Positions 22,445 through 52,343 of a stretch of DNA of 64,000 bases are shown here, piece after piece (the first letter of the stretch is position 1; each line of letters starts with the position of its first letter). Both the position numbers and the translations under genes were made by a program. A model generated the notes under the pieces. The model did no database searches, was not told where the DNA came from, and saw only the letters and a list, made by a program, of their open reading frames with translations. The stretch comes from an uncultured Candidatus Rokubacteria bacterium (GTDB lineage Bacteria; Methylomirabilota; Methylomirabilia; Rokubacteriales; CSP1-6). The DNA lies in the NCBI GenBank assembly GCA_963734175.1, contig CAVTGC010000006.1:423682-487681 (forward strand), read 5' to 3'.

Positions 22445-23809
22445 ATGAAGCGATCGCTCGTGGTCGTGCTGATCGCGGCGCTGGCGATCCTGGCCGGGGC
22501 CGGCGGCGTCGCCCTGCTCGTGAACATCCTCGAGCGCAAGAGCGAGGCGAGGAACCCCTTCTATCGGGTCGTGGAGCTGAACGACACGCTCACCGATCCG
22601 GCCGTGTGGGGGAAGAACTTCCCATTGCAGTACGACAGCTACCGGCGGACCGTCGACCAGGTCCGGACACGCTATGGCGGCAGCGAGGCCGTGCCCCGCA
22701 CGCCGAGCCAGGCCGATCCACGCTCGATCGTCGCCCAGTCCCGGCTCGAAGAGGACCCGCGCCTGAAGACTATGTGGGCCGGCTACGCGTTTGCCAAGGA
22801 CTTCCGCGAAGAGCGCGGCCACGCCTACATGCTGGAAGATCAGACGTACACCGAGCGGCAGATCGTGGCGAAGCAACCCGGCACCTGCCTCAACTGTCAC
22901 GCCTCGACCTATACCGCCATGAAGACTCTCGGCGGCGGCGACCTCGTCAAGGGCTTCGAGGCCATGAACCGCCTGCCGTACGCCGAGGCCCGGCGGCTCG
23001 TGAGCCACCCGGTGGCGTGCATCGACTGCCACGCGCCTGACACGATGGAGCTGCGGGTTACCCGGCCCGCCTTCATGGAGGGCATTCGGGCGGCGAAGGG
23101 CACCGAAGGCGTGAAGAACTACGACGTGAACCGCGACGCCACCCGCCAGGAGATGCGTGCATTCGTGTGCGGGCAGTGCCACGTCGAGTATCACTTCAAG
23201 GGGGCGGACAAGCGGCTCGTCTACCCGTGGTCGAAGGGCCTGAAGGTGGAGCAGATTCTGGCGTACTACGACGACGAGAAGTTCAAGGACTGGACGCACG
23301 CGGAGACCGGCGCGCCAGTGCTCAAGGCCCAGCACCCCGAGTTCGAGATGTGGAGCCAGGGTATCCACGCGCGCTCCGGCGTGGCCTGTGCGGACTGCCA
23401 CATGCCCTACATGCGGGTGGGCGCGCTGAAGATCAGCGACCACCACGTCCGAAGTCCGTTGCTCAACGTCAACCGGGCGTGCCAGACCTGTCATCGGTGG
23501 TCGGAGGACGAGCTGAAAGCCCGGGCGCTCATCATCCAGCAGCGGACGTTCGGGCTGCGCAACCGGGCGATGGACGCGCTCATCGCCCTCATCGGGGACA
23601 TCAAAGGCGCCGCCGCCGACGGCCGCACCGAGGCGCAGCTCGCCCCCGCCCGCGATTTCCAGCGCAAGGCCCAGTTCTACCTGGACTTCGTCGAGGCCGA
23701 GAACTCCACAGGCTTCCACGCTCCCCAGGAGGCTGCCCGGATCCTGGCCGAGTCGATCGACTTCACGCGGCAGGGCCAGCTCGCGCTGCGCGGCGGACGT
23801 GCCCGCTGA
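22445..23809 (+). CDS. nrfA: Ammonia-forming cytochrome c nitrite reductase (CxxCH clade)
   Basis: Five heme motifs, RGH, KAQHPEFE, HARSGVACADCHMPY, ENSTGFHAP. Confidence 0.95.
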   Translation: MKRSLVVVLIAALAILAGAGGVALLVNILERKSEARNPFYRVVELNDTLTDPAVWGKNFPLQYDSYRRTVDQVRTRYGGSEAVPRTPSQADPRSIVAQSRLEEDPRLKTMWAGYAFAKDFREERGHAYMLEDQTYTERQIVAKQPGTCLNCHASTYTAMKTLGGGDLVKGFEAMNRLPYAEARRLVSHPVACIDCHAPDTMELRVTRPAFMEGIRAAKGTEGVKNYDVNRDATRQEMRAFVCGQCHVEYHFKGADKRLVYPWSKGLKVEQILAYYDDEKFKDWTHAETGAPVLKAQHPEFEMWSQGIHARSGVACADCHMPYMRVGALKISDHHVRSPLLNVNRACQTCHRWSEDELKARALIIQQRTFGLRNRAMDALIALIGDIKGAAADGRTEAQLAPARDFQRKAQFYLDFVEAENSTGFHAPQEAARILAESIDFTRQGQLALRGGRAR

Positions 23810-24094
23810 CCCGCGCCACGCCGAGACTCCTCACACAGCCGGCTCGCCGAGTGCTGCGACCGCGCTCCACCGGGATGCGTCGTGGTTCGGTGGCGCGGCT
23901 GTGCGTTCGGAACCTGTACGGGGAGTGGGCCCACGCGGCGTCCCTGTGAAGCGGAAGACCGAAACAATCGATCGGCTTCTATGAAGCGAAGGAATGGGAG
24001 GCGCTGACGACTAGAGCGCGCGCAAGACAGGCTCCGTGTTTGAGTTTTGACTTTTACTGAACCCGGAGGAGCGGGAGCATCAACGACATTCGAA

Positions 24095-24131
24095 TGGTGG
24101 CCCCAACGGGATTCGAACCCGTGTTTCAGCC
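24095..24131 (-). repeat. 37-bp exact direct copy of the tRNA-Glu 3' end (att-like)
   Basis: tggtggccccaacgggattcgaacccgtgtttcagcc is identical to 52344-52380. Confidence 0.95.
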
Positions 24132-24216
24132 ACGGTCACGTTTTCGCTAAAGATCGCAGAGGCTTATACGCTGTTTAGTGCCGAGAAAAGCGACAGGACT
24201 AAAACACGCAGCTCGA

Positions 24217-24250
24217 AAACACGGGTTCGATTCCCCAACGGGACACGCCC
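24217..24250 (+). repeat. Inverted, imperfect copy of the tRNA-Glu T-arm/3' end
   Basis: aaacacgggttcgattccc matches the tRNA sense strand at 18/19 and pairs with 24108-24126. Confidence 0.8.
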
Positions 24251-24780
24251 GTCAGACTGTTGGGCTTGTGATGTGTTTCGAGGCGATCGTGATGGCCGCC
24301 TAGGGGCTGGGCTCGAGCCTCTCGGGCTTGACCTTGAAAGAGTCGGTTCGAGACCTTTCGAGATGGGCATTTACCGCGCCTTTGCCACACGTCGTTGCCA
24401 CTGAGCGAGGTACTCGCCTTGATCCGGATCAGCCGCCTCACAGGTTTCAGCCCTTTCCACGGCCGTTGGTCTTCTCAATGCCAACTTTCTGCGCGGGCCC
24501 AGACGGGGCGGCTCGGCCCATACGCTGACACCGTGCAGTGGTCAGGGCGCGCCCGCAATGAGGTTTGTGATCGGGACAGCCTCGCTCAGTGAGCCACTCG
24601 TCACGGCGCTGCTCGCGGGTGAATCGACGCAGCTTCCCGGAACCCCTGGATTCATCGTTTCTTAGGAGTGCGGCGCCGAGCGTGGGCCGAGATCCCGACG
24701 AATCCGCTGCCGGTTCCGCTCGGCCAGACGGACGTAATAGTCCGCCCACGCTTCGCTGAAGCAAGTGTATTCGGTACACC

Positions 24781-25376: not shown

Positions 25377-27047
25377 ATGGATGCTGGGTTCCTGCGACGA
25401 GTGGTCTTCCTCCGGGCGGTCCGATTCAATCTGGTCGCGACAGCCCTTGTATTTTCGGTGTTGAGCGCCCTAGCCGTCTCGGTAGGCGCTCAGACGATCA
25501 CGATCACGGGAGCAAGTACCGGCATATTTCTGAATGCTGACGGCGGCGTCACGTCGGGAGTCGGAACGAACCGCTTCACCTGGGGCGATCCCGGCAACCT
25601 AGGAACGGGCCCCAGCGCGCTCTCTTTCGTTGGAACTTCGTTCAACACGAGTGTCCAACGGAACTACGTCTTCGGGAGTCCTCAACGGCTCTCTGACGTG
25701 ATCACTTTAGGTACGCTGGAATACTTCAACGGGGCCATCCTCCCGAGTTCAAGGGCGAATTCCGTCGCCCTTGAGCTGACGTTTTCGCTTACGACGCCAT
25801 CGGGATTGCCTCCAGGCTCATCCTCGGGGACGCTCGTATTGATTGACACGCCGAACACAACCGACCCAGTTGGCAGCGCCGATTTCGTGCTTCTCCCGGT
25901 CCCCACACAGGGGATATCGTCTGTTGTTCTTCACACACCGGACGGCGTTCCGTTGACGCTCCAGGATATGCATTTCGGTCCCGTGAACGGCAGTGGCTTT
26001 GGTACGCTTGACGAGTTTTTCGTCCTGGAGGGAAGATCTGCCAGTGCACCGCTTCTGGGCCGCTTCCGTCCTCCATGCGAGGAGATCCTGCGGAATGCTA
26101 CGAAAGTACCTATTACTCTCCCTGAGCAGCATGTTATGTCGGCATTTTTCTTACCCAACTTCCGACTTACTCTTACAGAGGCCGCCGTTGAATGCGGCTA
26201 TGACCACTTCAACTGGTATCAGCGGGTGACCGAGGACCCCTATCCGCCGGGCGGGCTTAGTGTTCCGTACATCGATCCGCCGAACGGCGGCGGCGTTGCC
26301 TTTCAAGGGGCTGCGGACAATCTTCCCTTCTATTGGGATGAGAGCGGAGAGAACACCGACTTTTTATTGTCTACAAACACCCCCGGGGATGCTCTGCTCA
26401 ACTTCGCGGACGTTCCAAAAGACGGGAGGATCCTTCCCGGTCAGTTTATGAAGTTCACGACCGCTTTGGTCGGGGTGCGTGTAGATGGAAGCTTCGAGCT
26501 GCTCTACGTCTTCGACTGGAAGAGCAACTTCAATGGTATTAGCGGGGGCGTGAGTCGGAGAGGGTCGGGTGGCGACGAGCCTGGAACAGGTGGCATCTTT
26601 GACGTTCGGCTCGACCTGACTGAGGCGGATCTCTCGGAGAAAGAGAAGGCTGCAATGGCGCGGGACGGGGCGACTAACATTTCTTCTGCTGACATTACAC
26701 CGCCAGCAATCTCGCTGTCGGCAACTCCGCAGATCCTCTGGCCGCCGAACGGTAAGATTACGCCGGTCGGCGTGGTGGGCGCCATTTCCGATGACTCAAG
26801 CGGGATAGACCCTGCGACCGTAGCGTTCTCCGTTGTTGATGACTATGGACTCATCCAGCCTAGCGGCCCCGTCGCGCTGAAGGCTGACGGCAGCTATGCC
26901 TTCGTATTGCCTTTGGAGGCCCGACGCGCGGGCAATGATCGCACCGGACGTGACTATCGAATCACCATTACTGCCACGGACTTCGCCGGCAACGTCAGGT
27001 CTCGGTCTACGCTCGTCACTGTTCCCCATGACAAGCTCCAAAGGTGA
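25377..27047 (+). CDS. Secreted surface protein: choice-of-anchor K-like N-terminus and LWPPN-type Ig-like C-terminus
   Basis: Signal peptide; FTWG..SALSF..LGTLEYFNG..DTPN..SAD; C-terminus DITPP..LWPPNGK..GRDYRITITATD..VPHD. Confidence 0.7.
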   Translation: MDAGFLRRVVFLRAVRFNLVATALVFSVLSALAVSVGAQTITITGASTGIFLNADGGVTSGVGTNRFTWGDPGNLGTGPSALSFVGTSFNTSVQRNYVFGSPQRLSDVITLGTLEYFNGAILPSSRANSVALELTFSLTTPSGLPPGSSSGTLVLIDTPNTTDPVGSADFVLLPVPTQGISSVVLHTPDGVPLTLQDMHFGPVNGSGFGTLDEFFVLEGRSASAPLLGRFRPPCEEILRNATKVPITLPEQHVMSAFFLPNFRLTLTEAAVECGYDHFNWYQRVTEDPYPPGGLSVPYIDPPNGGGVAFQGAADNLPFYWDESGENTDFLLSTNTPGDALLNFADVPKDGRILPGQFMKFTTALVGVRVDGSFELLYVFDWKSNFNGISGGVSRRGSGGDEPGTGGIFDVRLDLTEADLSEKEKAAMARDGATNISSADITPPAISLSATPQILWPPNGKITPVGVVGAISDDSSGIDPATVAFSVVDDYGLIQPSGPVALKADGSYAFVLPLEARRAGNDRTGRDYRITITATDFAGNVRSRSTLVTVPHDKLQR

Positions 27048-27373: not shown

Positions 27374-28227
27374 CTAGACCGGCGCCGCTTCGGCGGTGGC
27401 CATGACCTGACGTTGGGCGACGAACTCGGTCGGCGTCAGGTGGCCGAGCGAGCCGTGTGGCCGGCGCTGATTGTAGTCGATTCGCCACGCTTCGATCTTG
27501 GCCTGCGCGTCGGCGATCGACGCGAACTGGTGCACGTTCAAACACTCGTCGCGCAGCCGTCCGTTGAACGACTCGATGAACGCGTTTTCTATGGGCTTCC
27601 CCGGGCGGATGAAGTCGAGCTGCACGCCGCGGCGATACGCCCAGTCCTCGAGCGCCCGCGACATGGAACTCCGTGCCATGATCCACCGTGATCGAGCGTG
27701 GCCGCGGCGCGTCCGCCGAGCACGTGGTCCAGGGCCTCGCCGACCGTGTCTCCCGACATGCTCGACGCCACCTCCAGTAACGGGCTGGAGCGACTCCACT
27801 GATCGACCACGGTCAGGATCCGAAACGGGCGGCCATCCGCCAGCGCATCATGCACGAAGTCCATGCTCCACCGCTCCGTGGGCCCCGCGGGGACGGGCGC
27901 GGGGCCCCGGTGCAGGGCGATGTGCTTGCGCCGCCGGACCCGCATGCGGAGCTGCAGGCCGTCGAGCCGATAGAGCCGACGCACGCGCTTCCGATTCACG
28001 GTCCAGCCGTCGCGGCGCAACAACACCCAAATCCGCAGGTACCCGAACCGCGGCCGCGCGTGGGCGAACTCACGGATGCGGAGCCGCAGCGCGGACTGAT
28101 CCCGCGCTCGACTCCGGCGATACCACGCCGCTCGACTGAACTGCGCCAGCCGACAGGCCCGCGCGCAGCTGACCTGGAAGGTCGCCTGAAACCACCCGGC
28201 CAGCTCGCGACGGCGCGCGGGCGTCAG
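27374..28227 (-). CDS. IS3 transposase OrfB (DDE); extra frameshifts near 27660-27710
   Basis: WSMDFVHD, LTVVD, DHGTEF, PGKPIENAFIESFNGRLRDECLN, YNQRRPH. Confidence 0.9.
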
Positions 28228-33678: not shown

Positions 33679-34380
33679 TTAGGTATTGCCACCGTGCGGG
33701 TCGTCGCGTTCAGGCGTGTTCGGGATCTCGCTGAGAAATTTCTGGACCCCTCGCTCCTCGATCGTTCGCTCAAGCTCCATGATGGCGATAAAGGCGTCAC
33801 CTGCGGCGATGAACCACGGGAATGATTCCCCCTGTCTCTTTCTCGACAGCTTATTAAGAAGGTTACCCATCTGGATCAGATCCTTCGCGAGCTTCTCGTC
33901 CTGCTGCTTCCAACTATCTTCAGGCGCATCGCTCAGCGCAGCGGCTAAGCTCCCCATCTCCTTTAGCAGCACAAGTACGTCTGTTGCACCGAAGCCGGCC
34001 ACGTATGGAACACACTCTCTGAGTTCCATGACCCGCTTCCCCCATGCCTCCCTCAGGATCTTCGCCTGATTCGTAGTAGGCGGATCTCGGTGGATCCATA
34101 CCTCCTTGCTTAGCCTGACCACCTGCGAGATGTTGAGCACCTCTATCGCCAGGATGCTCGCCATCCCGGACTCCGTCGTCTGCTTCCGTTCGCGTTCCAA
34201 AGCGCGCTTCAAGAGAACGTCGACAATAGCAACGGTGACCGCAACACCCCAGATTTCGGCAACGAAGTTCATGGCTGAGTCGGAAACCTTCCAGTACTTC
34301 AGTTCTTCGCCGAGTAAGACTGCCACTCCCCCTAGCACAACGAGGGCTCCTACCACTCGGACGAGACGCTCGCTAAACAC
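33679..34380 (-). CDS. Hypothetical protein with two N-terminal TM helices
   Basis: 233-aa ORF, lower GC, overlaps the integrase stop. Confidence 0.75.
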   Translation of the reverse strand: MFSERLVRVVGALVVLGGVAVLLGEELKYWKVSDSAMNFVAEIWGVAVTVAIVDVLLKRALERERKQTTESGMASILAIEVLNISQVVRLSKEVWIHRDPPTTNQAKILREAWGKRVMELRECVPYVAGFGATDVLVLLKEMGSLAAALSDAPEDSWKQQDEKLAKDLIQMGNLLNKLSRKRQGESFPWFIAAGDAFIAIMELERTIEERGVQKFLSEIPNTPERDDPHGGNT

Positions 34381-35518
34381 GGTCAGGGGCCAGCGTGAGT
34401 CGCCGTTCTACCTCTCTAGCAGCGACTGGCTGCTGTCTTACTCCCACGCTCGGTCCTTCGCCGCCACTGACGGCTTCCGCCGCCGCTCGGAGCGTCTGAT
34501 CGGTCACCGCCGCGTACCGGCGCATCATCCGCTCTGTCTTCCACCCGCCGAGCGCCATGACGATCGGCGCCGTGAAGCCCTTGTTGAGCGCCATCGTAGC
34601 CCCGTGGTGGCGGAGATCGTGGAAGTGGAAGTCCGGAGCCCCGCCTGGCGCGCCGCCTTCCGGAAGACCCGGGAGACGTGCACGCGGCTGTAGGGCGCGC
34701 CGTCAGGATTCGGGAAACACCCACTCGCTGTCCAAATGCTGCTCGAGCTGGCGGGCCAACAGCTTCTGCGCCTCGGCGCTGAGGATCACCGGCCTGGCAC
34801 CCGCCTTGGCCCGCGGCAGCATCACCACTCCCTGCTCGAGGTGGACATGCTCACGGCGGAGAGTCCGCAGCTCGCCCTGCCGCATGAGCGTCAGCGCCGC
34901 GAGCTTGGCCAGCTCCCGAAACGGTGACCGCAGCGGCTCCAGCACGAGTATCTCCTCCTCGGGCCGGAGCCACCTGACCCGCGTCTCGTCCTCTGGGTAG
35001 AACGCGGCGCCTGGAAAGCGGAAGTCCGGGCGAGCCAGCTTCAGCATCGCGCGCAGCGTGCGCAAATCGCGATTGATGCTGCTGGGCTTGGCTGGGACGT
35101 ACCGCTCGACGCGCTGGCCAGCGACCAGTTCGCTCACCGCCTTGCCCTCACGGGCGAGCGCCTGGCGGAAGTCGTAGACGTCACGATCGCGCACGCGGCT
35201 GACCGGCGTGGTGAGCAGCGCCGGCAGGAGCCGCTCCATGGCTTTCGCGGTGCTCGCGACACGGCCGATCGTGTCCGCGCCCTTCCCGCGAGCCTCCAAA
35301 TCGGCCACATAGAACTCGAATAGCGCCTTCACAGTCACAGGCCGCAGTCCCTCCTGCTCCGCCTGCCCGGCCTGGGCCTTCAGATCGCGGAGCAGCTCGC
35401 CCTCGGCGTCGCGCGCCGCCTCCTTCGACGGCCGGAACGCGGCCTTGCGAAGCCCGCGGTAGGCGACGCGCGCCTGCCAGACCCAGGTGCCGTGGTTCTT
35501 GATGCGACGTACGGTCAT
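34373..35518 (-). CDS. Tyrosine recombinase/integrase; apparent frameshifts at 34650-34710
   Basis: TLMRQGEL (R), FHFHDLRHH (HxxR), LGGWK..MMRRY (Y); GGAGG RBS. Confidence 0.92.
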
Positions 35519-35535
35519 CTCTGACCTCCCTGTCG

Positions 35536-35820
35536 CTAGCGGTGTGTAAACTTAAGCCCCTCCGTCGTGACCAAAAGCCTCTGGTGACCACCGTCTTCAC
35601 GCAGCGCCTTCGCTACATTCCATACGCTCAATTTCCGGCGGACTTCCGCCGAACTGAAGTCCTCCAGAAATTCGAAAGAAGCTGTCAGCAAGAGAATCGC
35701 GGTGCCGTGCTGAACGCTGAAGCTATGAGCGGACCGATCATGCTCCCGGCTGTCCCCCACTTCCTGGTCAGGAAACTCTCGCCTGAGGTATGTGCGGACG
35801 GCTTCGATGTTCTCTCTCAC
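35536..35820 (-). CDS. Hypothetical protein
   Basis: 94-aa co-oriented ORF with an upstream AGGAG. Confidence 0.6.
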   Translation of the reverse strand: MRENIEAVRTYLRREFPDQEVGDSREHDRSAHSFSVQHGTAILLLTASFEFLEDFSSAEVRRKLSVWNVAKALREDGGHQRLLVTTEGLKFTHR

Positions 35821-39395: not shown

Positions 39396-40023
39396 CAAGC
39401 ATTGTCGAACCGCACGCGCCTCCAGCGATCCTCCGGGTCGGTCCACCCCGGCACCTTCACCTTGAGCCATGACGTCGTCTTGCCGCCGAGGTACTGGCTC
39501 GCCTCGTCCTTCCCGACGTACCCCTCGTAGCCACACTCCAGCACCTGGGCCCACGCCTCCAGGCCGTTGCCCGCCAGGCGGCGGGCCGGCAGCACAAGGG
39601 CGTGACCGGCCACGATGTCCTCCAGACGCGGCCGGCGTTCACGCAGGGGCGACGAGGCTGAGGTCCTGGCCGGCGCGGTAGAGCACGTCGAAGGCCATGT
39701 AAATCGGCGGCGTCGCGATGATGCTGGGATCGGATTTACGGAGCAGATCAAACCGCGAGCGCATCGCCTGATCGAAGATCGCGACTTCACCATCGAGCAC
39801 GAGGGTGGGCTCTGCCAACGCCGCGACCGCTGCCACGAACTGGCGGAACCGGCGGGCATGGTCGATGCCGTTGCGGCTGAGGAGGCGGACACTGGTTCCG
39901 TCCTTGTAGGCGAGGATGCGCCAACCGTCGACCTTCTCCTCGTAGACCCAGCCCGGGCCGGTGGAACGGCTGCCGGACCTGCGTGGGATGCATCGGGGTG
40001 TACTTCGGCAGCGCCGCCCTCAC
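39395..40023 (-). CDS. Minimal ATP-dependent DNA ligase (adenylation domain only); apparent frameshifts
   Basis: EEKVDGWR (motif I), LSRNG, LDGEV, AFDVL, EGYVGK, WLKVK. Confidence 0.85.
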
Positions 40024-40340
40024 GGTCCGAGAAACCGCTCGGCATGCTTCACGGCGTCCCACCCGGCCCGCTGGACGGCCCGCCAGGGCTTCGAATCGTT
40101 GGCCCAGCCGCCGACGATGGAGTGCATCCGGCCAGTGATGTAGAACGTGGCGCTCCACCCCTCGTCGGCCTGCTGGATCAGCGCCATGTCATAGCCGACT
40201 CGATGGAGGCCCACGGCCAGCACCCCGATACCGTGCCAGTTGTCGAGCCAGGCGTGGAGCATCTGCAGCTCGGGCTCGGTCGGCTTGAGCTGGAGGAAGC
40301 CGAGGGTGGCGGTGAGATTCAGGCGGCGCTGGTCGATCAC
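40020..40340 (-). CDS. Hypothetical Trp-rich small protein
   Basis: GTGA overlaps at both ends; [34 protein letters not shown]. Confidence 0.75.
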
Positions 40341-41312
40341 TCGATCACCTGATCCGCCCGCGCCAGCAGCGACGGCGGGATCGTGAGGCCAAGGGCCTTC
40401 GCGCTCTTGAGGTTGATGACCAAATCGAACTTGCTCGGCTGCTCGACGGGGAGATCGGCAGGTTTGGCACCTCTTCAAAATTCTATCGACATACCCAGCG
40501 GCACGTTGGCAGCCCTCAGGAATGCTCGGGCCGTAAAACAGCATGGTGCCGGCTTCGGCGGCTCCGATCTCACCGGACAAACTTGGCAGCCGATGCTTGA
40601 GCGCCAGTTCGGCAATCTCCTGGCGATTGGCTGTAAAGAATGGTCCTTGTGTCAGCATGATGGCCTCCGACCTGCCACGAGCCGCGGCCTCGAACGCACC
40701 GGATAAATCTTCGATCCGTCGTACCTGGATAATTTGACTCCGCACCTCCATGTGTCGCGCGGCGGTATCCAGATCCTTGACGAACAAGTCTTGCACCGGC
40801 CCTGATAGTCGGAGAATGGCCATTCGCGACACCCGCGGTGCCGCCTCCTTCAGCAGTTGAAGCCGTTTCTGCATCAGCTCCCCCGTATGAGTGGCTTGGC
40901 CCGTAATGTTCCCGCTCGGCCGAGCGAGACTCACGATCAGACCGCGCTCGACAGGATAGCTACTCGAGGACATCACGATCGGAATCGTGGATGTGGCTTG
41001 CTTCGCAGCTTCTACCGCCAGGGACGTGACGACGAGGACGTCTACCCCGCTCTGTACCAGTTCCTTCGCAAGTCGGGGAAAGGAGTCGATCTGTCCCTCG
41101 GACCGTCGCAGCTCGATGTGGTGGGTCCTCCCCTCGATGTAACCTAGCGCGTTCAGGCCTCGCCGTACTGAATCGGTACAGTTGTCGATCCCACGCGAAG
41201 CGCCCGACAGTACTCCGATCCGCCAAACCTTCCCCGCCGGCTGCGCTTCGGCGGCGAGCGGCGCAATAAGCGCACTCGCCAGCGAGGTCAGCAGGAAGCG
41301 GCGGCGGTCCAC
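40337..41312 (-). CDS. ABC-type substrate-binding protein (PF04392-like); apparent frameshift
   Basis: [10 protein letters not shown] leader; [11 protein letters not shown]; [17 protein letters not shown]. Confidence 0.88.
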
Positions 41313-42285
41313 TACTCGATCACCTGATCCGCCCGCAGCCAGCAGCGACGGCGGGATCGTGAGGCCGAGGGCCTTGGCGGTCTTGAGGTTGATGACCAGC
41401 TCGAATTTCGTCGGCTGCTCGACTGGCAGATCGGCCGGCTTCGCGCCCTTCAGGATCTTCGTCCACGTAGGTGGCGGCGCGTCGGAGCAGGTCGGCGTTG
41501 CTCGGCGCATACGCCATGAGGCCTCCCGCCTCCACATGTTCCAGCCGTCCGTAGATCGCCGGCAGCCGGCTCTTCGTTGCGAGGTTGGCGATCTGTGTTC
41601 GATGATTCCAGAATATGGCGTCCGACAACACGAGGAGCGCGTCGGCGCGCTCCCTGGTCATCGCCGCAAAGGCGCTGTCGAACTGTTCCGAACCCTGCGC
41701 CTCCAGGCGCTGAAGCTGGACCCCCAGCACCCGGGCCGCACCTTCCACCTCGCGCAACTGAGGTGCGGAGACGTTATTGGCGGGATTCGAGAGGACGGCC
41801 ACTCGGGACACCTTGGGCACAGCCTCCCTCAGCAGCTCCAGCAATTTGGGGCCCAGCTCGACGGCGATGGAACTCAGCCCCGTGACGTTGTCGCTTGGTC
41901 GCGCGAGGCTGCCGACGTGCCACGCCCCGAGCACTGTGACAATGGGGATCGTCCGGGTCGCATTCTTGGCCGCGAAGGCTGCTGGGGGACTCGCGGCAAC
42001 GATCACGTCAACCTTCAGACGCACGAGCTCGATGGCGAAGTCGGGCAACTCCGCCCTTTCCGCCCAACGGTATTCGATCACGATGTTCCGACCTTCTGCG
42101 TACCCGAGATTTCGCAGCTCTTGCACGAAAACCCCCAAGAGACGGGAAACCTCAGGGTCTGTGGGCTGCTGGGACGAAAGAAACCCGATCTGGTAGACCT
42201 TTCCTGACTGCTGCGCGTTGGCGGCCAGCGGCGCGGCGAGGCCCCCGGCCAGCGAGGTCAGCAGGAAGCGGCGGCGGTCCATCAT
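41312..42285 (-). CDS. ABC-type substrate-binding protein (PF04392-like); apparent frameshifts
   Basis: [11 protein letters not shown]; [10 protein letters not shown]; [11 protein letters not shown]; [27 protein letters not shown]. Confidence 0.88.
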
Positions 42286-45266: not shown

Positions 45267-46868
45267 TCATCGCCAGAACCGCCGGCGCCCCCGGCCATCG
45301 TCGGTCTCGGACAACATCCCGCCGCGGAGCACGTGCTCGAGCTGACCGACCAGATGGGCCGCGTGGGCCGAACGGGTGCCGAAGAAGCCGTGGAGCGGGG
45401 GCGCACGCCGCCCCGCGTCCTCGCCCTTCGTCGCAGCGACCGACTCATGTGTCGCGGTCGCCGGCGCCACCGGCCGACCGCGCTGAATCGCCGCGAGCGC
45501 GGCCATGCTCAGCGCAACGATCGAGTCGATCTTCTTCGACCCCCGCTCCTTGGCGATCCGCCACCCGCGGCGCGCCTCCAGCGCGACCGTGTTCAGCGCC
45601 TGCTCGCGCATGTCGGCCGCCGGGTAGAGCTTCAGGTTGCGACCGCTGAGCAGATCCCAGAGCGCCTGGCCCATCGCCGTCGTGGTCTGCGTCGTCTGGG
45701 GCAGCTCTTCGATCCGCAGCTGGGCCTTCTGCAGCGTCACGATCGAGCGGTGCATCTGGAACGGGTCGCATACGATCTTCTCGACGGCGTAGTGCGTGTG
45801 CAGCTCGCGCAGGTAGGCCTCGATCGTCGCCTCCAGATCGAGCGGCAGCCTCGGCGTCGGTTGCCAGATCCGGTGCAGCGCCAGCGCCACGTGATCGCCG
45901 ACGTACCCGACCCCCACCACCGCCGCGGAGTCATGCTTAAGCGCCGCATCGACGCCGATGAACAGCCGGATGTCGCGCGTCGGCAAGAGCGGGCGCCACG
46001 CGGGATCGACGCACGGATCCCACAATTCCGGCGTGATGAAGATCGACTCACTCGTCACCCAGCGGTTCTCGTGAATCCGCATGTACGTAGCCGGCCGCAG
46101 CGTCTCGCGCTGCCCGGCGTAGTACTTCGCGCCCGCCTCGCCCGTCTGCCAGGGCTGGCGCCCCACGTGCGCCCAGAAGCACACCAGGTCGTCCGCCCGG
46201 TAGACCTCCAGATCCTCGTCGAGCCGCGCGCCGGCCATCCCCTGCGTGTAGAGCCCCTCAAGCAGCGTTGACTCGCCCGACCAGCCCGCATAGGTCACGA
46301 CGAGCACCCAGGCGTCCGGCTCCGTCGGCGGCGGCGTCAGCTCCTCCCACAACCGCTCGGCCGACTCCGTGCTGAACCCCCAGAGCTCGTCGTAGATCAC
46401 CAAGCTGTGCCGCGCGCCGGCCGCCCCGCGATAGTCCGCCGCGATCGCCGTGATGATCGTCCCGTTCGAGAGCGTGATCTCGGAGGTCAACACCTTCGCC
46501 GAGGCCTGGAGCGCCGCGTTGCGCCCGATCACCTTGCGCATCGTGTCGAACACCCGAGACTGCGCCTGCTCCAGATCGTTGGCCGCCACGACGACCTCGG
46601 TGTCGCCCGTCACGTACCCCCACCACAGGCCCAGCACCGCGGCAATGAACGTCTTGCCCGACTTCTTCGGCTCGCCCCAGAGCAGCAGCCGCAGCGCCAA
46701 CGCGCCGAGCGCGTCCCACGTGAACGCCAGGCGCAGGACCCGGCGGTGATGCGCCGACAGCCGCCACGGCTGGCCCTTCTCGTTGAACGGGATGAACTCG
46801 TCGCAGAACCGGATCGGGTTGCGGGCGTAGACACTCCAATCGGTCGCGCTCGCCATCGGCGCCTTCAT
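45267..46868 (-). CDS. Terminase large subunit
   Basis: Walker A PKKSGKT, Walker B VIYDE, motif III VTYAG, nuclease IGVDAA..DSAA and KIDSIVALSMA. Confidence 0.92.
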   Translation of the reverse strand: MKAPMASATDWSVYARNPIRFCDEFIPFNEKGQPWRLSAHHRRVLRLAFTWDALGALALRLLLWGEPKKSGKTFIAAVLGLWWGYVTGDTEVVVAANDLEQAQSRVFDTMRKVIGRNAALQASAKVLTSEITLSNGTIITAIAADYRGAAGARHSLVIYDELWGFSTESAERLWEELTPPPTEPDAWVLVVTYAGWSGESTLLEGLYTQGMAGARLDEDLEVYRADDLVCFWAHVGRQPWQTGEAGAKYYAGQRETLRPATYMRIHENRWVTSESIFITPELWDPCVDPAWRPLLPTRDIRLFIGVDAALKHDSAAVVGVGYVGDHVALALHRIWQPTPRLPLDLEATIEAYLRELHTHYAVEKIVCDPFQMHRSIVTLQKAQLRIEELPQTTQTTTAMGQALWDLLSGRNLKLYPAADMREQALNTVALEARRGWRIAKERGSKKIDSIVALSMAALAAIQRGRPVAPATATHESVAATKGEDAGRRAPPLHGFFGTRSAHAAHLVGQLEHVLRGGMLSETDDGRGRRRFWR

Positions 46869-46959
46869 CGCGCGGCCTCGAAAAATTCAACGGGGGGGCT
46901 TGGGATATAGGGGTCGGCGGCGAGTCGCGAGGATCGACCGCCGGAGTGGTGGGTGGGGG

Positions 46960-47388
46960 TCATCGGCCACCTCCGCTCAGCTGTTCGGCCAGGGTGGCGC
47001 GGGAGGGACGATCGAGGAGCGCGAGCTTCGCCTCGGCCACTCTCTCCAGCTGCGATGCCGCGCGCCTGGTCGCCTTCGGGTCCGTCCCCAAGTCCCGGCG
47101 CGTCTTCTCGGCCAGGGCCAGGTACTCCGCGGCGGCCCGGAGTCGACGACGAGCGAGGGGCGTGCTGGCGACGTACTCGTCGAGCAGCTCCTGCCCGATC
47201 CTCCGCGCCAGGCAGGAGACCCGGCTGTGTCCGTCCGCGAACGTGCCCCACTGCCGCCGCCATGGCGCCCGCCAGCCGCGGCGGTACGGCAGTGGAGCGT
47301 TGGATGGCAGCGATGTGGCAGCAGCGTCGCGCAAGTACCTGTTGTCGTTGCCCGTGACGCTGCCTGGGCGGGGCTGTGTCTGGCTCAT
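46960..47388 (-). CDS. Putative terminase small subunit-like protein
   Basis: Helical basic protein immediately upstream of terL; call is positional. Confidence 0.45.
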   Translation of the reverse strand: MSQTQPRPGSVTGNDNRYLRDAAATSLPSNAPLPYRRGWRAPWRRQWGTFADGHSRVSCLARRIGQELLDEYVASTPLARRRLRAAAEYLALAEKTRRDLGTDPKATRRAASQLERVAEAKLALLDRPSRATLAEQLSGGGR

Positions 47389-47581
47389 CGGACCTCCGAG
47401 CCGCTCCAGCGGATCGCCGCCCAGCGGCGCTCGGCGAGCAGATCGGCGGCGCGGGTCAGCTGCCGGCGGATGGGTCGGGGACCCGCAACCGGAGAGCGAG
47501 AGGGCGTGGGGCCGGTCCCGTAGCCGTAGAGCCGACTCCCAGGCCAAGGCCTCGGCCAGCCTTTCATTACGCGGCATGGGC

Positions 47582-49168
47582 TCACGACAGCACCTCGCCG
47601 AGGCCATCCCCGGGGTGGACATTTTCGCTCGGCGGCGAGCTGGTCCCTTCGCTGAGGGGCGCATGATTGGCGGCTTCCGTGGGCTGATCGCGCTGCCGTC
47701 CGCTATCCATGCGGTCGGCAGCGAGGTCCGCCTTCGGAAGGGTCATTTGGCGTAGAGCTGGAGTCTCGGGGCAGCTCGCCGCCGAGCTAGCCTCACAGGG
47801 GGTCCGGGGAGAGAAAAACACGACGTAGACGGCAGTGCCGCCCTTCCCTCCTGGCCGAGGCGCTGGCGACAGCTGCCAGAGTCTCCCGGCGCCTTCTGTC
47901 ACGAGGTCACGGGCGGCAGCCCGCTTGAGGCCGGCGGCGTGCAACAGATCCTCGGCCTCCCCCTTGGTCAGCGGGGGCTTGCCGAAGTCGGCACGGTGGC
48001 GCATCTGGGCGAGCATCTGGTGGGTCGCCTTGGCCACCTGTTCCTCGCGCTCGCTGATCTTGGTCGTCAGCGCGGCATGGCCCTCCTCGACTAGCTCGGC
48101 GGTCACGTCCCGGAGAATCCACGGCTCGGCTCGGTGGTCGATCTCCAGCACGAAGGGCTCGGGCTCCTCGCCCAGCCGGAACTTGGTCGGGATGAACGCC
48201 AGGCGATAGACGTCGCGCCGCTTGCGCCGCGACGCCCGCTGCGCCCAATCGCCGACGCCGGCGGGCGCCAGCTCGTGCCACCAGTCTTTCTGGCCGCTGG
48301 GCTTGAGGTCGGTCGCGTCCCGGATCTCGTACACGAGGTCGCCGCGATCCTCGAGCACTCCCGAGCCGCGGCTGTGGGCGCCGGACTTGACGACGTTGCC
48401 CAGCACCAGGATCGCAGGGCCATCGGCCCGCCGGGCGAGGTCCAGGACCGAGGAGAACGCGAGGGAGGGTTTCGCGCTGTCCCCCTCCCCAACCCCCTCC
48501 GTGCTGGCGTCGATCGAGTCGATGATCACGACGTCGAAGGTGTCGAGCGGGAACGCGCTCCACGCGACCGCATCGGTGAGCGCCGGGGCCTTGTCGCGGG
48601 TGATCAACTTGAAGTGCTCCGCGTCGTGGCCGCCCCACTTTTTCAGGCGTCGGCGGATCTCATAACGTGGATTGTCGCGGTCGACGAGCAGCACCCGCAG
48701 TCCCGTGCGAGACAGGCGCACCGCGATCGCATAGGTGACCTGGGTCTTGCCGAGCCCCCGCGGCGAGTAGAGCTCCGTGATCCCGCCTCGCACCAGCAGG
48801 CGCGGCTCGAGGAAGTCCACCACCTCGTCGGTTTCCTCCAGGAACACTGGCACGGCGACCGCGCTGCCCCACACACTGGGCCCGCCGCCGCGCGCGCCTG
48901 GGGCGGGCGCCGCCGCTGGACGGGTGCGCCCGTTGTTGAACGCGCCCAGCGCCCGGCCGATCGCCTCCCAATGCGCCCGGCCGAGGTCCGTATCCTTGGA
49001 CCAGGCGCAGCCCCAGTCGCCGTTGTTGAACAGGCAGGCATTGTCCTGGTGCTTGTCGTGTCCTTCGGCGGCGCATGCCGGGCACTGGAACTTGATGCCG
49101 TGAGCCCGGCGCATCGCGCCAGCCTGCTGGAGCGCCGCCGACTCGAGATCAACGGTGGCTGGCCGCAT
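47582..49168 (-). CDS. Zn-finger plus RepA/AAA_25-type replicative helicase
   Basis: CPAC..H..C; Walker A SPRGLGKT; VVIIDS; RGSG. Confidence 0.85.
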   Translation of the reverse strand: MRPATVDLESAALQQAGAMRRAHGIKFQCPACAAEGHDKHQDNACLFNNGDWGCAWSKDTDLGRAHWEAIGRALGAFNNGRTRPAAAPAPGARGGGPSVWGSAVAVPVFLEETDEVVDFLEPRLLVRGGITELYSPRGLGKTQVTYAIAVRLSRTGLRVLLVDRDNPRYEIRRRLKKWGGHDAEHFKLITRDKAPALTDAVAWSAFPLDTFDVVIIDSIDASTEGVGEGDSAKPSLAFSSVLDLARRADGPAILVLGNVVKSGAHSRGSGVLEDRGDLVYEIRDATDLKPSGQKDWWHELAPAGVGDWAQRASRRKRRDVYRLAFIPTKFRLGEEPEPFVLEIDHRAEPWILRDVTAELVEEGHAALTTKISEREEQVAKATHQMLAQMRHRADFGKPPLTKGEAEDLLHAAGLKRAAARDLVTEGAGRLWQLSPAPRPGGKGGTAVYVVFFSPRTPCEASSAASCPETPALRQMTLPKADLAADRMDSGRQRDQPTEAANHAPLSEGTSSPPSENVHPGDGLGEVLS

Positions 49169-49676
49169 AGACCTTCGCGCGGAGGTAGGCGCGCCACAGC
49201 CCCGGCAGCTCGGGCAGCGGCTCGGCCGCCGGATCCACGAGCCACCGATAGGGACGCCCAGTGTTCGGGTGAACGCTCGGCGGAATGACGGCCTGCTGCT
49301 GCCCCGGGCCACGCTGGATCTCGCCGATGATGATGCCCTGCCAGGTGAGCTTGGCTGGCAGGTCCGGCTCCCAGGCGACGTAGTAGTGCAGGCGACCGCG
49401 CCCCGTCTCGACCCACGGCGCGCACGGCTGGCCGAGCGTGTCGATCATGTCGGCCCAGCACAGCAGCTCGTCGGGGTCGAGGACGGCGAGGCCGTTCGGC
49501 TGGCCCGCGACGATGCCGAGGTTGCCGCCGGCGCGAAGATGCCGTCCGGCGACACGCGGGTCGTTCGTCACCTGCCAGCGCCGGCCGAGCGGCGGCTTCT
49601 TTTCGCGAGCAGCCAGGAGGACGACCTGCCACCGGCGCTGCTCGATCATCGCCAGCGTCAGCTCGGCGTCGCTCAC
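49149..49676 (-). CDS. Bifunctional DNA primase/polymerase N-terminal domain
   Basis: KKP, NLGIVAG, LAVLDPD, ETGRGRLHYY, VIPPSVHP.TG..YRW. Confidence 0.9.
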   Translation of the reverse strand: MSDAELTLAMIEQRRWQVVLLAAREKKPPLGRRWQVTNDPRVAGRHLRAGGNLGIVAGQPNGLAVLDPDELLCWADMIDTLGQPCAPWVETGRGRLHYYVAWEPDLPAKLTWQGIIIGEIQRGPGQQQAVIPPSVHPNTGRPYRWLVDPAAEPLPELPGLWRAYLRAKVYAASHR

Positions 49677-50001
49677 CGGGCCCCCACCTCGTCGCCGCGC
49701 CACCGGAGCGCCGCGCGCCCCGCTGACCGAGCTGCAACGCCGGCTTGACCTGACCACGCGCTCGTCGGCGTAGGAGCGTCTTCGGCGTGATGCTGAGCCG
49801 CTCGGCCATCTCCGCCGTCGTCAGGAACTCACCGCGGGCTCCGGGCGTCAGCTGCGCCGCCACTGCAGCGAGCGCGACCGTCAGGCCGCTGTACTCGACC
49901 CAGACACCCTCTTCGCCGTTGGCGATCCGGTCCTCGAGCTGCTCCAGGCGTGTCAGCAGGCGCCGCTGTGCGCGCTCGAGGCCGAGGTGGAGGGCGTTCA
50001 C
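49673..50001 (-). CDS. Excisionase-like HTH protein; apparent frameshift near 49717
   Basis: FLTTAEMAERLSITPKTLLR. Confidence 0.7.
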
Positions 50002-50201
50002 CGCGAGGAGCGCCGCTCCTGGCGCTCACGGGCGATGCGCTCAACGTCGTCACGACGGAAGATCCGATGGCCGTTACCGAGTCTGATCGCGGGCAGGACG
50101 CCGTCATCGGCGAGTCGACGAGTGAGCTCTTGAGAGCCCTGTAGAATCCTGGCCGCTTCACCGAGGGCGACGAACTCGCTCTGGGGATCGATCACGCTCA
50201 C
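49998..50201 (-). CDS. HTH_17/MerR-like excisionase
   Basis: EAARIL..RRLADDGVLPAIR..GHRIFRRDDVE. Confidence 0.85.
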   Translation of the reverse strand: MSVIDPQSEFVALGEAARILQGSQELTRRLADDGVLPAIRLGNGHRIFRRDDVERIARERQERRSSR

Positions 50202-50240
50202 ACGCCGACATTAACGCGTGAGCGACGTAGATTTGTGGAT

Positions 50241-50282
50241 ACGCGGAAAGAAGCAACGCGACGCGGAACTATTCCGCGTTGC
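50241..50282. promoter_or_regulatory. Candidate operator: three ACGCGGAA half-sites
   Basis: 50241-48 direct copy; 50261-79 perfect palindrome acgcggaa-cta-ttccgcgt. Confidence 0.5.
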
Positions 50283-50778
50283 GCGTCGCTGGGGGCAGCC
50301 TGAGCCTGTTGCGGACCCTCCAAACCTGATCATGGGTGACGCCCAGCATGCTCGCACGCTGTCCATCGCTTCCTATCCAACCTGGCCTGGGGCGATGCTG
50401 TTGCAGGTTCTTCAGAAGGGCCTCATCCTTGAGGCCGGGGGGTCGACCAAGTCGGGCGGTCTGCTTCTCATGTCCGTTGCCTACCGGCTCACCCCGGCGA
50501 ATTTCTTCGCGTCGATGATCGAGCCGGATCTCCTCACCCAAGCGAGCATCCTCGAGACGACCCAAGAGGCTACCCCGGCATTCCGAGCAGCGCACCACAT
50601 GATGCAACGCATCGGATGGGCACGAAGCGTAGAAGGCTCTTGCCATCTCGTCAGCGCGCCGCCGGAGTTCCTCGTCGGTCGGGGGCGGGGGCAGCGGCAG
50701 CCGCATCAGGTCCTTGAGCGTGGCGGGGCGAGGACCGGTTCGTTTCGCTAGACCTCGACGGGTGCGCCGCTTCCCCAT
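50269..50778 (-). CDS. Hypothetical protein with possible C-terminal HTH
   Basis: GGGAGG RBS; GRPP..ASMLGVTHDQVWRVR. Confidence 0.6.
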   Translation of the reverse strand: MGKRRTRRGLAKRTGPRPATLKDLMRLPLPPPPTDEELRRRADEMARAFYASCPSDALHHVVRCSECRGSLLGRLEDARLGEEIRLDHRREEIRRGEPVGNGHEKQTARLGRPPGLKDEALLKNLQQHRPRPGWIGSDGQRASMLGVTHDQVWRVRNRLRLPPATRNAE

Positions 50779-50865
50779 CTTCCCCTCCCAGGGAGAAGCG
50801 GGCAGGGGCGCTGGGACGCCCCCATCAGCGCCGGCGGCCACCGGCACCTAGCCCGCGTGCTGAGC

Positions 50866-51096
50866 CTACATTGAGTTCAGGTCCGTCGATTCCAGGATCT
50901 CGCCGGTCTGCACGATCTGATAGCGGCCGCCGCCGAGCCGGTTGACGGAGCGGCCGTCCGCTGTACGAATGCTCGGCATGCCCTCGACGCTCGATCGTCC
51001 CCTCAAGGTCGAGGTGTCGATGTCTCGGACCCAGACGTTCAGCAGTTCGGTGGTCCCGTCACGCCGGGCAGCGGTGAAGCGTGCCTTTAAGCGCAT
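50866..51096 (-). CDS. Small hypothetical protein
   Basis: 76-aa ORF with GGGGA RBS; T.DGR.VNR..G.YQIV.TG. Confidence 0.65.
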   Translation of the reverse strand: MRLKARFTAARRDGTTELLNVWVRDIDTSTLRGRSSVEGMPSIRTADGRSVNRLGGGRYQIVQTGEILESTDLNSM

Positions 51097-51303
51097 GGCA
51101 TCCCCCAGGTCTGAGGTTGAAGGAACCGGGCCCGATGCTCTGGGCCCGGTGGACCGATTACTTGCCGCCTTTACCGGGCTTGGGCACTCGCTCCACCACC
51201 GTGGTGTTACGCGGTCACCCCGCGCAGGTTCCCGAGCGCCACGCTCGGGGCTGTCCCGGCCGGCAACGCTGCTCTAGTCAGCGCGTTGTCGGCCGGTCTG
51301 TTT

Positions 51304-51807
51304 TCACGCGGCTTCCTTCCAGCGGTTATGCTCCAAGCGGAACAGCGGGAGCTGCAACTGCCGCTTCTTCTTCGCAAGCCGCTTGGCTGCCTGGTTCAGC
51401 AAGACCTCACGGACCTCGCCATCCTTGGCCGCCACGACGATCGCCCGCGCGAGCTGATCCATCGATGAACCCATCGCGGTCTTGTCGTTCTCGACCCGCG
51501 ACAGGTGCGCGGGATCAACGCGCAGGAGCGCCGCGAACTTCTGGCCCGAGATCCCGGCGTGCTTTCGGAGAAAGCGCAGCTCGGCACCGATGAGCGGCTC
51601 CGGCTTCTCGATGAAAGCCTCCGCGATCACGCGATGCAACTCGCCGACGCGGGGGATCTGCGGAACGCTCGGATGCCCGCTCGGGCATTCGAACACCACG
51701 ATCCCCACCAGGCCGACGTGCGGCAGCCCGGCCAAGTCGTACCTATACGGAGCCGCCAGCGACGGCCGACGCTCGCTCATGGGTGCGCTGCAGATCGCGC
51801 AAGTCAT
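51304..51807 (-). CDS. MqsA/YgiT-like Zn-ribbon plus HTH antitoxin
   Basis: CAIC..CPSGH; ELRFLRKHAGIS..FAALL..LSRVEND. Confidence 0.85.
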   Translation of the reverse strand: MTCAICSAPMSERRPSLAAPYRYDLAGLPHVGLVGIVVFECPSGHPSVPQIPRVGELHRVIAEAFIEKPEPLIGAELRFLRKHAGISGQKFAALLRVDPAHLSRVENDKTAMGSSMDQLARAIVVAAKDGEVREVLLNQAAKRLAKKKRQLQLPLFRLEHNRWKEAA

Positions 51808-51839
51808 AGATCATCCCCCCCTCGCTCACTCGCTCAGCG

Positions 51840-52142
51840 TCAGTAGTCAAGCACGCTGACGACGAAAACGTGTCCGGCCAGCGCCACGACGCAGGACGCG
51901 TTGACGTTGGCCACCGTGCTGCCCTGAATCCGATACCGCCACTGCCCATCGCGGAAGTCGTGGCTGATGATGCTGCCGCGCAAGATGATGTGCTGCAGGT
52001 CGAGCACGTCCATCTTCCGCTTCTCCATGGCGAGCTGGGCGTGCTGGTGTATCTCGAACACTCCCTCGTCCCACAACCGCTTGATCCGACGGTGCACCCT
52101 CGCGTAGTCACCAGGGTTATCCAGCGGCACGACGTTGCTCAT
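51840..52142 (-). CDS. DUF4258-like (RelE-type) toxin
   Basis: HA..MEKR.MD..D..IL.G..WRYRIQG; lies upstream of the antitoxin. Confidence 0.75.
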   Translation of the reverse strand: MSNVVPLDNPGDYARVHRRIKRLWDEGVFEIHQHAQLAMEKRKMDVLDLQHIILRGSIISHDFRDGQWRYRIQGSTVANVNASCVVALAGHVFVVSVLDY

Positions 52143-52188
52143 CACCCGTTCCAAGCCCCCTGCGCGTATTCGGTCCGGCGTCAGAATG

Positions 52189-52218
52189 AGGATAGAGCAA
52201 TCTTGAGTAATTATCAAG
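52189..52218 (-). promoter_or_regulatory. sigma70 promoter/operator of the TA operon
   Basis: TTGATA-N17-TATCCT overlapped by the palindrome cttga-gtaatta-tcaag. Confidence 0.65.
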
Positions 52219-52304
52219 CGCCGGAACCTGCTGCCATTCCGCTGCCACTCCGGGGGTCATTTGAGGTCACTTCCGGCCTTTTGTAGACGGCATGGCCAGA
52301 CGAG

Positions 52305-52330: not shown

Positions 52331-52343
52331 CTTGAGTTTTTAC

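Follow-up and report, generated by a model that had tools for sequence, protein, structure and literature searches.

A probable island junction at tRNA-Glu(CTC) carrying an arm-inverted second att core in a Candidatus Rokubacteria genome

In a 64,000-nt stretch of an uncultured Candidatus Rokubacteria genome (contig CAVTGC010000006.1; hereafter the window, meaning this whole stretch), positions 24095 to 24261 hold two sequences related to the 3´ end of a tRNA-Glu gene, a left and a right arm, with a core between them. A preliminary description had taken this unit for a tRNA-derived miniature mobile or invertible element bounded by inverted tRNA-Glu ends. Our analysis points instead to a decayed island at tRNA-Glu(CTC), with the unit as its distal attachment (att) junction and with an unusual second att core, inverted in its arms, in its end piece; we consider this reading probable. 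The direct repeat, the island, a family of related end pieces, the flank homology and the association with recombinases in relatives are established.

Two tRNA genes were detected in the window with ARAGORN, both on the minus strand: tRNA-Glu(CTC) and tRNA-Gln (52433-52506). The left arm was identical at 37 of 37 positions to 52344-52380, that is, to the part of tRNA-Glu(CTC) that extends from the anticodon stem's 3´ half to the CCA, and the two copies are on the same strand, 28.2 kb apart. When the 37-mer was searched for with up to three mismatches, two matches were obtained in the window, as opposed to none expected from 100 shuffles. The left arm had thus been rightly recognized as a copy of the tRNA-Glu 3´ end, although not as an antisense one: because the real tRNA-Glu gene is on the minus strand, the left arm is a direct repeat, and the premise that only inverted repeats are present gives way to the classical direct repeat of a 28.2-kb tRNA-Glu island, identical to the 3´ part of the tRNA and with one copy inside the intact gene. 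The left arm would be an ordinary displaced tRNA end, i.e., an att scar. A third, internal att copy, which would prove a tandem island, was found neither at ≤3 mismatches in 37 nt nor at ≤2 in 15 nt. A pseudo-tRNA at 24 kb was also considered and discarded; ARAGORN called no tRNA there, and the right half aligned to tRNA-Glu over the last ~30 nt only.

The 120 nt immediately to the left of the repeat showed homology to the sequence lying immediately downstream of the intact tRNA-Glu(CTC) gene in three relatives, G012, G007 and G021 (loci L053, L058 and L062), so that the distal repeat is followed by the former downstream flank of the tRNA. This flank contains a hairpin, CTCCGTGTTTGAG...AACCCGGAG, and the terminal sequence ATCAACGACATTCGAA; both the hairpin and the motif ATCAACGAMATT are included in the homology with the three loci. 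At the other end, the query 51300-53100 was searched in 41 genomes, 37 of which matched. The relatives are assemblies of the metagenome-assembled type and of varying completeness, and "not found" holds for those searched. At the tRNA-Glu/tRNA-Gln/HU locus, the match started at query position 1045, corresponding to window position 52344, in 20 relatives (19 without G022), and no match among the 41 genomes reached left of query position 1028. The region downstream of tRNA-Glu differed in nearly every genome. Since the repeat is direct, the interval is low in GC and bears mobile genes, the homology stops at 52344 and the flank is of the tRNA type, 24095-24131 is taken as the old tRNA 3´ end, displaced by the insertion of 24132-52343. 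Beyond the flank, a gene for a cytochrome c552, NrfA-type nitrite reductase (22445-23809, plus strand; PF02335, E = 2.8e-136) ends 166 nt before the flank and 286 nt before the repeat; its closest copy in a relative (G001:C60, 85% DNA identity) is not beside tRNA-Glu.

The interval between the two repeats is compositionally distinct, strain-specific and rich in traces of mobile genes (Table 1). GC content falls from ~0.69 to 0.58–0.66 at 24001, stays low until ~43 kb and is low again at 50–52 kb; over 24–43 kb it is 0.58–0.67, compared to 0.67–0.74 outside. No intact cognate recombinase was found in the island, which holds only a tyrosine integrase gene interrupted by a TGA and a remnant of ~60 amino acids (aa). 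The TGA (34703-34705) breaks an otherwise open frame of 392 aa and could reflect either a pseudogene or a sequencing error. The remnant matched best to TIGR02249 among the NCBIfam models (71 bits, partial) and showed 68% aa identity to an intact integrase at G000:C1:223870-224916. Overall, the island is decayed and probably composite.

Table 1. Positions of the features discussed, in window coordinates.
Feature	Position	Strand	Remark
Former downstream flank of tRNA-Glu	23975-24094		Homologous to flanks in G012, G007 and G021
Left arm	24095-24131	-	Putative displaced 3´ end of tRNA-Glu(CTC); distal att repeat
11-nt direct repeat CCCCAACGGGA	24101-24111 and 24233-24243	+	Repeat search
Core (K)	24132-24216		Putative att arm of tRNA-Glu island family; contains CACGTTTTCGC and GACAGGACTAAAAC
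CGAGAAAAGCG	24182-24192	+	Candidate arm-type accessory site; second copy at 52301-52311
Right arm (R-Y-Q)	24217-24261	+	Putative second att core copy; arms inverted, centre CAAC un-inverted
Integrated island, 28.2 kb	24132-52343		Probably composite; between the two 37-nt repeats
Tyrosine recombinase remnant, integron-integrase-like, ~60–86 aa	24805-25011	+	PF00589, six-frame match
Insertion sequence (IS) transposase fragment (rve_3)	27374-27799	-	Domain match
Tyrosine integrase, in-frame TGA	34376-35551	-	Probably a pseudogene; PF00589, 68.6 bits; phrog_1 integrase
Phage/satellite-like block	45267-51807	-	Terminase, AAA_25, Prim-Pol and helix-turn-helix (HTH) genes
Large terminase	45267-46868	-	Phage-like block
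AAA_25 ATPase	47582-49312	-	Phage-like block
Prim-Pol	49149-49757	-	Phage-like block
HTH regulator	51304-51807	-	Phage-like block
Intact tRNA-Glu(CTC)	52344-52419	-	3´ 37 nt (52344-52380) form the proximal att repeat

The 11-mer CGAGAAAAGCG, which had been noted in the core and again beside the tRNA gene, does occur exactly at both places and nowhere else in the window, even at one mismatch; as a count, the pair is no better than chance, given that 42 of 100 shuffles reached two matches at ≤1 mismatch. The two copies may represent accessory (arm-type) sites that flank the att core in the excised form, and they hint weakly that both island ends belong together.

Further genes of the island are recorded here for completeness. 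The product of its first large gene (25377-27047, plus strand), 556 aa long, contains a choice-of-anchor K domain (NF038131, E = 1.9e-20), and its PEP-CTERM-family match (NF038125) is weak, below the cut-off. Substrate-binding genes of the ABC_sub_bind type (PF04392) lie in or beside three tRNA-Glu islands, in the window (40020-42285, minus strand), in G000:C1 (L066:5297-6364) and in G006:C4 (L048:1386-2426), and share 43–50% identity with one another.

The core belongs to a family. BLAST of 23400-24330 against 40 relatives yielded 14 copies of left arm plus core in 9 of them, at 70–78% identity, with matches running from the T-arm through ~75–120 nt of the core and conserved blocks GGATTCGAACCCGTG, CACGYTTTCGC and GACGGGACTNAAAC. 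The expectation that the core would recur in dispersed copies with different flanks and the same tRNA arms was therefore borne out for left arm and core, whereas both arms were rarely kept. Six of the 14 copies lacked the acceptor part (TGGTGG...) and were homologous only from CAACGGG or beyond, so that a recombination breakpoint is placed next to CAAC; with homology breakpoints of the family clustering there, the crossover itself would have occurred near CAAC.

The unit is non-coding, as had been supposed: when the core was considered as the coding tail of a recombinase, a stop was found after GIRTR[AV], in frame and right past the T-arm, in 9 of 15 copies, and this candidate was rejected. 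Neither a structured RNA family nor covarying pairs were detected. Rfam gave no relevant match on 23800-24600 (E up to 10) or on 14 family loci (E up to 0.1), and consensus folds of 15 copies reached about -4.7 kcal/mol, with compensatory pairs at 0 of 10 positions on the plus strand and 3 of 12 on the minus strand. The core thus reads as a conserved, non-coding, unstructured end piece of ~110 nt of a tRNA-Glu island family. The genes around its copies are diverse, and all-against-all BLASTP of the open reading frames (ORFs) of eight 20-kb loci revealed no conserved protein neighbour shared with the window. Core copies may also occur close together: on the reverse strand of L090, a two-armed K2-type unit and a K-type core (274-430 and 2240-2370) flank a single cytochrome P450 gene at ~1.8 kb from each other, and paired copies are 4.2 kb apart in G036:C1 and 3.6 kb apart in G032:C155. 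These arrangements are cassette-like arrays of island ends.

The right arm is made up of AAACACGGGTTCGATTCCC ... GGGACACGCC, followed by a 13-nt outer extension, CCGTCAGACTGTT (24249-24261), that overlaps the last C of GGGACACGCC; the flanks at G000:C1:293k and in L088 carry the reverse complement of this extension. A repeat search returned inverted arms at 24097-24126 and 24217-24246 (30 nt, 80% complementary, 90 nt apart). Inside these otherwise inverted arms, CCCCAACGGGA is repeated directly, and this is what had been described as a flipped 4-nt loop. The right arm is a left-arm-type site in which the centre is complemented; put the other way round, the arms are inverted and the centre is retained. 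This agrees with the earlier proposal that both arms derive from the tRNA-Glu att sequence. Read on the opposite strand, right arms line up directly with left-arm-type sites apart from the centre, as in L041 compared with L091, GTCCAACGAC...CCC[GTTG/CAAC]GGGATTCGAACCCGTGTC.

The polarity of the centre bears on the idea of an invertible segment. According to the parts of PMC3783163 consulted for serine integrases, the site attP is a pseudo-palindrome that has half-sites of 25 bp, and site polarity is set by the central dinucleotide only. Because polarity would depend on the centre alone, and CCCCAACGGGA is direct in both arms, the two arms would share one polarity, from which the deletion or integration of the intervening spacer is predicted and not inversion. 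The invertible element proposed earlier finds no support, and neither inversion nor independent movement of the unit was in evidence. Soil-metagenome contigs matching the unit contained no strand-change joint, although such contigs cannot show minor forms. Among sequencing runs, the highest share of the words sampled from the stretch was 0.13, and no RNA run containing it came up.

With regard to its distribution, the right-arm motif ACGGGTTCGAWTCCC-CRAC-GGGA recurs at G000:C1:585468, as an exact 30-nt copy, at G000:C1:305910, as a 74-nt copy of 89% identity that includes the end of the core, and in L040–L043. Units with both arms are far rarer. They were found in 2 of the 183 genomes of the order, in four metagenome contigs (L088–L091) and as one match (L087, the unit already seen in L049) in the genome_contigs collection, which by its description covers 185,579 species and from which records of the window's own or very near genomes may be left out. 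A 169-nt soil-metagenome contig additionally covers 24106-24243. Chance matching or an assembly fold-back, which had been named as a possible refutation, was discarded on the strength of the motif copies in G000:C1 and of the recurrence of the unit in independent assemblies (L049/L087, L088–L091) and in the soil contig. By the same counts, the unit is not dispersed in many copies per genome as miniature inverted-repeat transposable elements (MITEs) would be. The notion of a discrete module is supported by L088, which matches the window over exactly 24095-24261 (a block of 167 nt; 84% over 168 nt) with unrelated flanks on either side.

Two families of two-armed units can be told apart, one with the K core (window, L088) and one comprising L089–L091, in which a 50-nt tRNA fragment is followed by an unrelated spacer of ~55 nt and by the right arm and TTTGGCAGTGGGAC. 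Arm complementarity extends past the tRNA-like part in both of them, with different sequences (AACAGTCYGACGG/CCGTMRGRCTGTT and GTCCCACTAGCAA/TTTGGCAGTGGGAC). L088 and L090 represent the undivided form, in which both outer flanks are present, the order in L088 being outer flank, left arm, core, right arm, outer flank. The window has the flank of the tRNA in place of the left outer flank, as would be expected from recombination inside the left arm. A split form was seen in G000:C1, with core, right arm and outer flank at 305.9 kb and an outer flank with a 50-nt tRNA-Glu 3´ fragment at 293.1 kb; these ends enclose a low-GC stretch of 12.8 kb that has no recombinase, the 13 nt adjoining each of them are mutually reverse complementary, and the arrangement fits an integrated form. 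In G012, a right-arm-type site lies 24.4 kb from the tRNA-Glu, at a synteny break, in a mosaic picture that proves nothing. As a separate observation, the region G000:C1:578001-594000 (L068) contains a tyrosine integrase gene with an open frame of 641 aa (585599-587521, minus strand), a right-arm-type site ~100 nt past its stop and two further fragments of the same integrase type within 8 kb, making it another insertion hot spot.

Regarding the recombinase, the relatives point to large serine recombinases at the same target (L078, L091, a partial gene in L056, and G000:C10). In G034:C8, a K-type core copy at 2954796 is followed ~24 kb to its right by an intact large serine recombinase gene (L078), the frame of which enters the antisense strand of the real tRNA-Glu(CTC) and the product of which is 51% identical to that of G000:C10; this locus appears to show the geometry of the window with the recombinase still present. 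L091 encodes a protein of 646 aa, with the domains Resolvase, Recombinase and Zn_ribbon_recom, whose frame passes through the left arm of the two-armed unit. The C-terminal 170 aa of a large serine recombinase read into tRNA-Glu(CTC) in L056 (G010), and in L083 (G012) a serine recombinase gene is found ~230 nt upstream of the core end and right arm. The 587-aa frame in G000:C10 (246366-248126, minus strand) covers the whole of an antisense tRNA-Glu(TTC); no repeat of the tRNA-Glu(TTC) 3´ end was found near it at ≤6 mismatches in 32 nt. From these relatives, we infer that the window insertion was made by a serine recombinase, a protein combining Resolvase, Recombinase and zinc-ribbon domains that is not encoded beside att in the window itself.

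Two side observations concern recombinases of the lineage. In the region G000:C10:246352-248126, the last ~22 residues of the serine recombinase (MVTPAGFEPAISTLKGSCPRPG) are encoded by the antisense of tRNA-Glu(TTC), the tRNA gene being on the plus strand; an overlap of recombinase and antisense tRNA also occurs in L078 (G034) and L091, in two different reading frames. G000:C1:223870-224916 encodes an intact integron integrase (TIGR02249, 455 bits; cut-off 265), downstream of which lie short minus-strand ORFs and 17-nt inverted repeats, GGAATAGGCCGACCAGC / GCCGGTCGGCCTATTCC. The region may be a chromosomal integron of the lineage, and no attC-like repeats resembling the unit were found near this integrase.

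Taken together, we propose that an element inserted into tRNA-Glu and would have supplied the new 3´ end (52344-52380), pushing the old end and its flank 28.2 kb away, and that the core and right arm would represent the incoming element's own terminal arm. The recombinase, of the large serine type at the tRNA-proximal end of the islands of relatives, would have been lost from the decayed, probably composite island of the window. The right arm would then be a second att core 85–100 nt inside the element, with half-sites swapped and inverted and with a central CAAC that keeps the polarity of the target. We favour its being an accessory or relic second site: either an additional recombinase-binding site or the fixed relic of a recombination in the wrong orientation at the near-palindromic T-arm.

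Several observations weigh against this proposal. A clean empty site, with nrfA adjoining tRNA-Glu, was found in none of the relatives searched, and tyrosine integrase genes or fragments lie just past the shared flank in L053, L058 and L062; the "native" flank could in turn represent an arm of some older element. Left of 52344, the junction lacks the outer flank AACAGTCTGACGG predicted by the undivided form in L088, and the two island ends may come from different elements. Further, no serine recombinase gene or remnant was detectable in the 64 kb, Pfam searches of 56 neighbouring ORFs revealed no recombinase within 6.5 kb of the core in eight loci, and most K-type copies in relatives have no tRNA-Glu within 17 kb. 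The copies away from tRNA-Glu are distal or orphaned island ends. Lastly, two families whose sequences are unrelated have both retained the outer inverted repeat, which is not easily reconciled with a pure scar.

This last point touches on the strongest of the alternatives, in which the right arm is entirely a relic: a scar without function, left by antiparallel recombination or by an inverted duplication at the T-arm and inherited with the element end. We regard it as possible but rather doubtful. The T-arm (ACGGG-TTCGAA-T-CCCGT) is nearly its own reverse complement, and serine integrases, for which antiparallel synapsis and rotation occur freely, are described in parts of PMC3783163 as synapsing, cleaving and rotating equally well in antiparallel alignment. 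L040 has the form of a perfect symmetric wrong-orientation product, with 17-nt arms around CAAC, and single right-arm-type sites are present at other island or rearrangement borders (G000:C1:585468, L041–L043). The rarity of the unit, the heavy decay of the islands, the poor folding of the unit of G036 and the lack of a consistently adjacent recombinase would all suit a relic. A functional site is favoured, conversely, by the retention of the whole architecture (left arm, spacer of 70–100 nt, right arm and outer inverted extension) in two families whose spacers and extensions are unrelated, and by the one informative case in which the centre has stayed in step with the left arm (CGAC/CGAC in the unit of G036). 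Those same CGAC centres would also be expected of a duplicated crossover segment, and so speak for a miniature non-autonomous element, 24112-24232, moved in trans by a tRNA-Glu-specific recombinase; in a variant, it would consist of the joined ends of a larger element with its interior deleted, with T-arm-like terminal inverted repeats and CCCCAACGGGA flanking them. The 11-nt direct repeat does flank the inverted ends, and the window and L088 have exactly 24095-24261 in common and nothing beyond. In addition, a 16.6-kb segment of lower GC in G006:C1, with ACACGGGTTCGAATCCC-CAAC-GGGATTTGAGCCCGTG and core on the left and a right-arm-type site on the right, has borders resembling the two ends of a full-length element, and one soil contig (depth 2.8, a single contig) joins 24148 to 24216 with a shorter spacer. 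We nevertheless consider such an element unlikely: two-armed copies are very rare, and no genome has more than one intact unit; the right arm is missing from 12 of 15 aligned core copies; an empty site was absent from the loci looked at, with no separate search for the sequence expected of one; the left arm needs no explanation beyond that of a displaced tRNA end that kept its own flank; and a double-stranded DNA circle of ~121 bp is physically unfavourable.

A broader proposal, to which we attach little probability, holds that tRNA-Glu elements of this lineage carry a bipartite, self-complementary attachment region, acting as a folded or cruciform site or as a polarity-matched second site for a serine recombinase. 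It would hold the true core and an arm-swapped second core of the same central polarity, with complementarity extending beyond the tRNA-like part. More specifically, the arms could pair as a folded single-strand attachment site that mimics the tRNA-Glu duplex, with a 4x4 bubble and the core as a loop, for a recombinase of the Xer or integron type; this we judge very unlikely. In the window, the predicted single-stranded fold does pair the arms (-33 kcal/mol, z = -3.3, none of 200 shuffles as good), the bubble coincides with the homology breakpoints of the family, and the complementarity extends 13–22 nt past the tRNA-like part in two families with different sequences; an integron-integrase-like remnant lies ~550 nt to the right, and the arm spacing of ~85–100 nt resembles the ~90 nt between attP1 and attP2 of the CTX phage. 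The unit of G036, however, folds no better than its shuffles (z = -1.35, 17 of 200) and its outer stem is not complementary. The AAC/GTT triplets are unpaired, unlike those of an attC R box, with CAAC on the same strand in both arms; the remnant is only ~60 aa long and none was found beside other units; no genes for single-strand replication or transfer were identified in the island; and the intact recombinases at the sites of relatives are of the serine type, which act on duplex DNA. Hardly credible, finally, is the earlier suggestion of a hairpin or antisense RNA directed against tRNA-Glu. Over 37 nt the plus strand is perfectly antisense to tRNA-Glu, and stable folding is possible, but the absence of Rfam matches at permissive thresholds, in the window and the 14 family loci, and of a covarying structure on either strand argues against it.

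For the island junction that we prefer, one consequence is a correction of the reading of the locus, since a seemingly exotic inverted tRNA-derived element would be mainly an ordinary island boundary. The analysis also defines a 28.2-kb insertion and marks tRNA-Glu(CTC) as an insertion hot spot in a little-studied soil lineage, and serine recombinases whose 3´ gene ends are encoded by antisense tRNA-Glu should be useful for predicting the att sites of new serine integrases. The second core, inverted in its arms and direct in its centre, is a testable oddity of att architecture that, if functional, would reveal something new on how recombinases use the near-palindromic T-arm. Were the bipartite region real, a structured site would mimic the duplex of a tRNA gene with an unpaired crossover bubble, extending the principle of CTX attP(+) and integron attC to tRNA-gene targets.

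Islands and prophages integrated into the 3´ ends of tRNA genes, with attL and attR as direct repeats, are said to have been described by Reiter in 1989 and Williams in 2002. The window resembles them in its exact direct repeat, one copy of which completes the tRNA, in the low-GC DNA with phage, IS and integrase genes in between, and in the homology break at the tRNA 3´ end; it differs in that the terminal arm of its element has an arm-inverted second core ~90 nt away and that no intact recombinase is left. We know of no described second attP-like site inside an element, and a full-text literature search returned, by title, no description of an inverted second att core at tRNA sites, which is not a claim that none has been published.

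The sites of large serine recombinases, as far as the sections of PMC3783163 used here go, are comparable in their pseudo-palindromic half-sites of ~25 bp and centre-set polarity, and the genes of relatives lie at the tRNA-proximal end; unlike in such systems, the window holds no serine recombinase, and its att repeats measure 37 nt compared to a crossover need of 2 bp. The Thermococcales integrase rearrangements covered in part of PMC5495485 likewise involve a recombinase acting on tRNA-derived sequences in non-canonical orientations and leaving inverted tRNA fragments, although they are the work of archaeal tyrosine integrases and produce large chromosomal inversions, with no inversion being shown in the window.

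MITEs are similarly short and non-coding, with inverted ends and a short direct repeat, and the 167-nt block does occur in two unrelated contexts with terminal inverted repeats (30 nt, 80% complementary). Unlike MITEs, however, it is present at about one copy per genome in few genomes and not in many dispersed two-ended copies, and one of its "ends" is the displaced 3´ end of a host tRNA. The CTX phage attP(+) and integron attC are folded single-strand recombination sites. With these the unit shares two inverted, target-like arms ~90 nt apart, a possible stem with an unpaired centre, a variable loop and the joining of both arms at one junction after integration; it departs from them in that there is no evidence of a single-stranded stage, that the attC pairing of R´´ (RYYYAAC) with R´ (GTTRRRY) is absent, and that the only Xer/IntI-like gene nearby is the 60-aa remnant.

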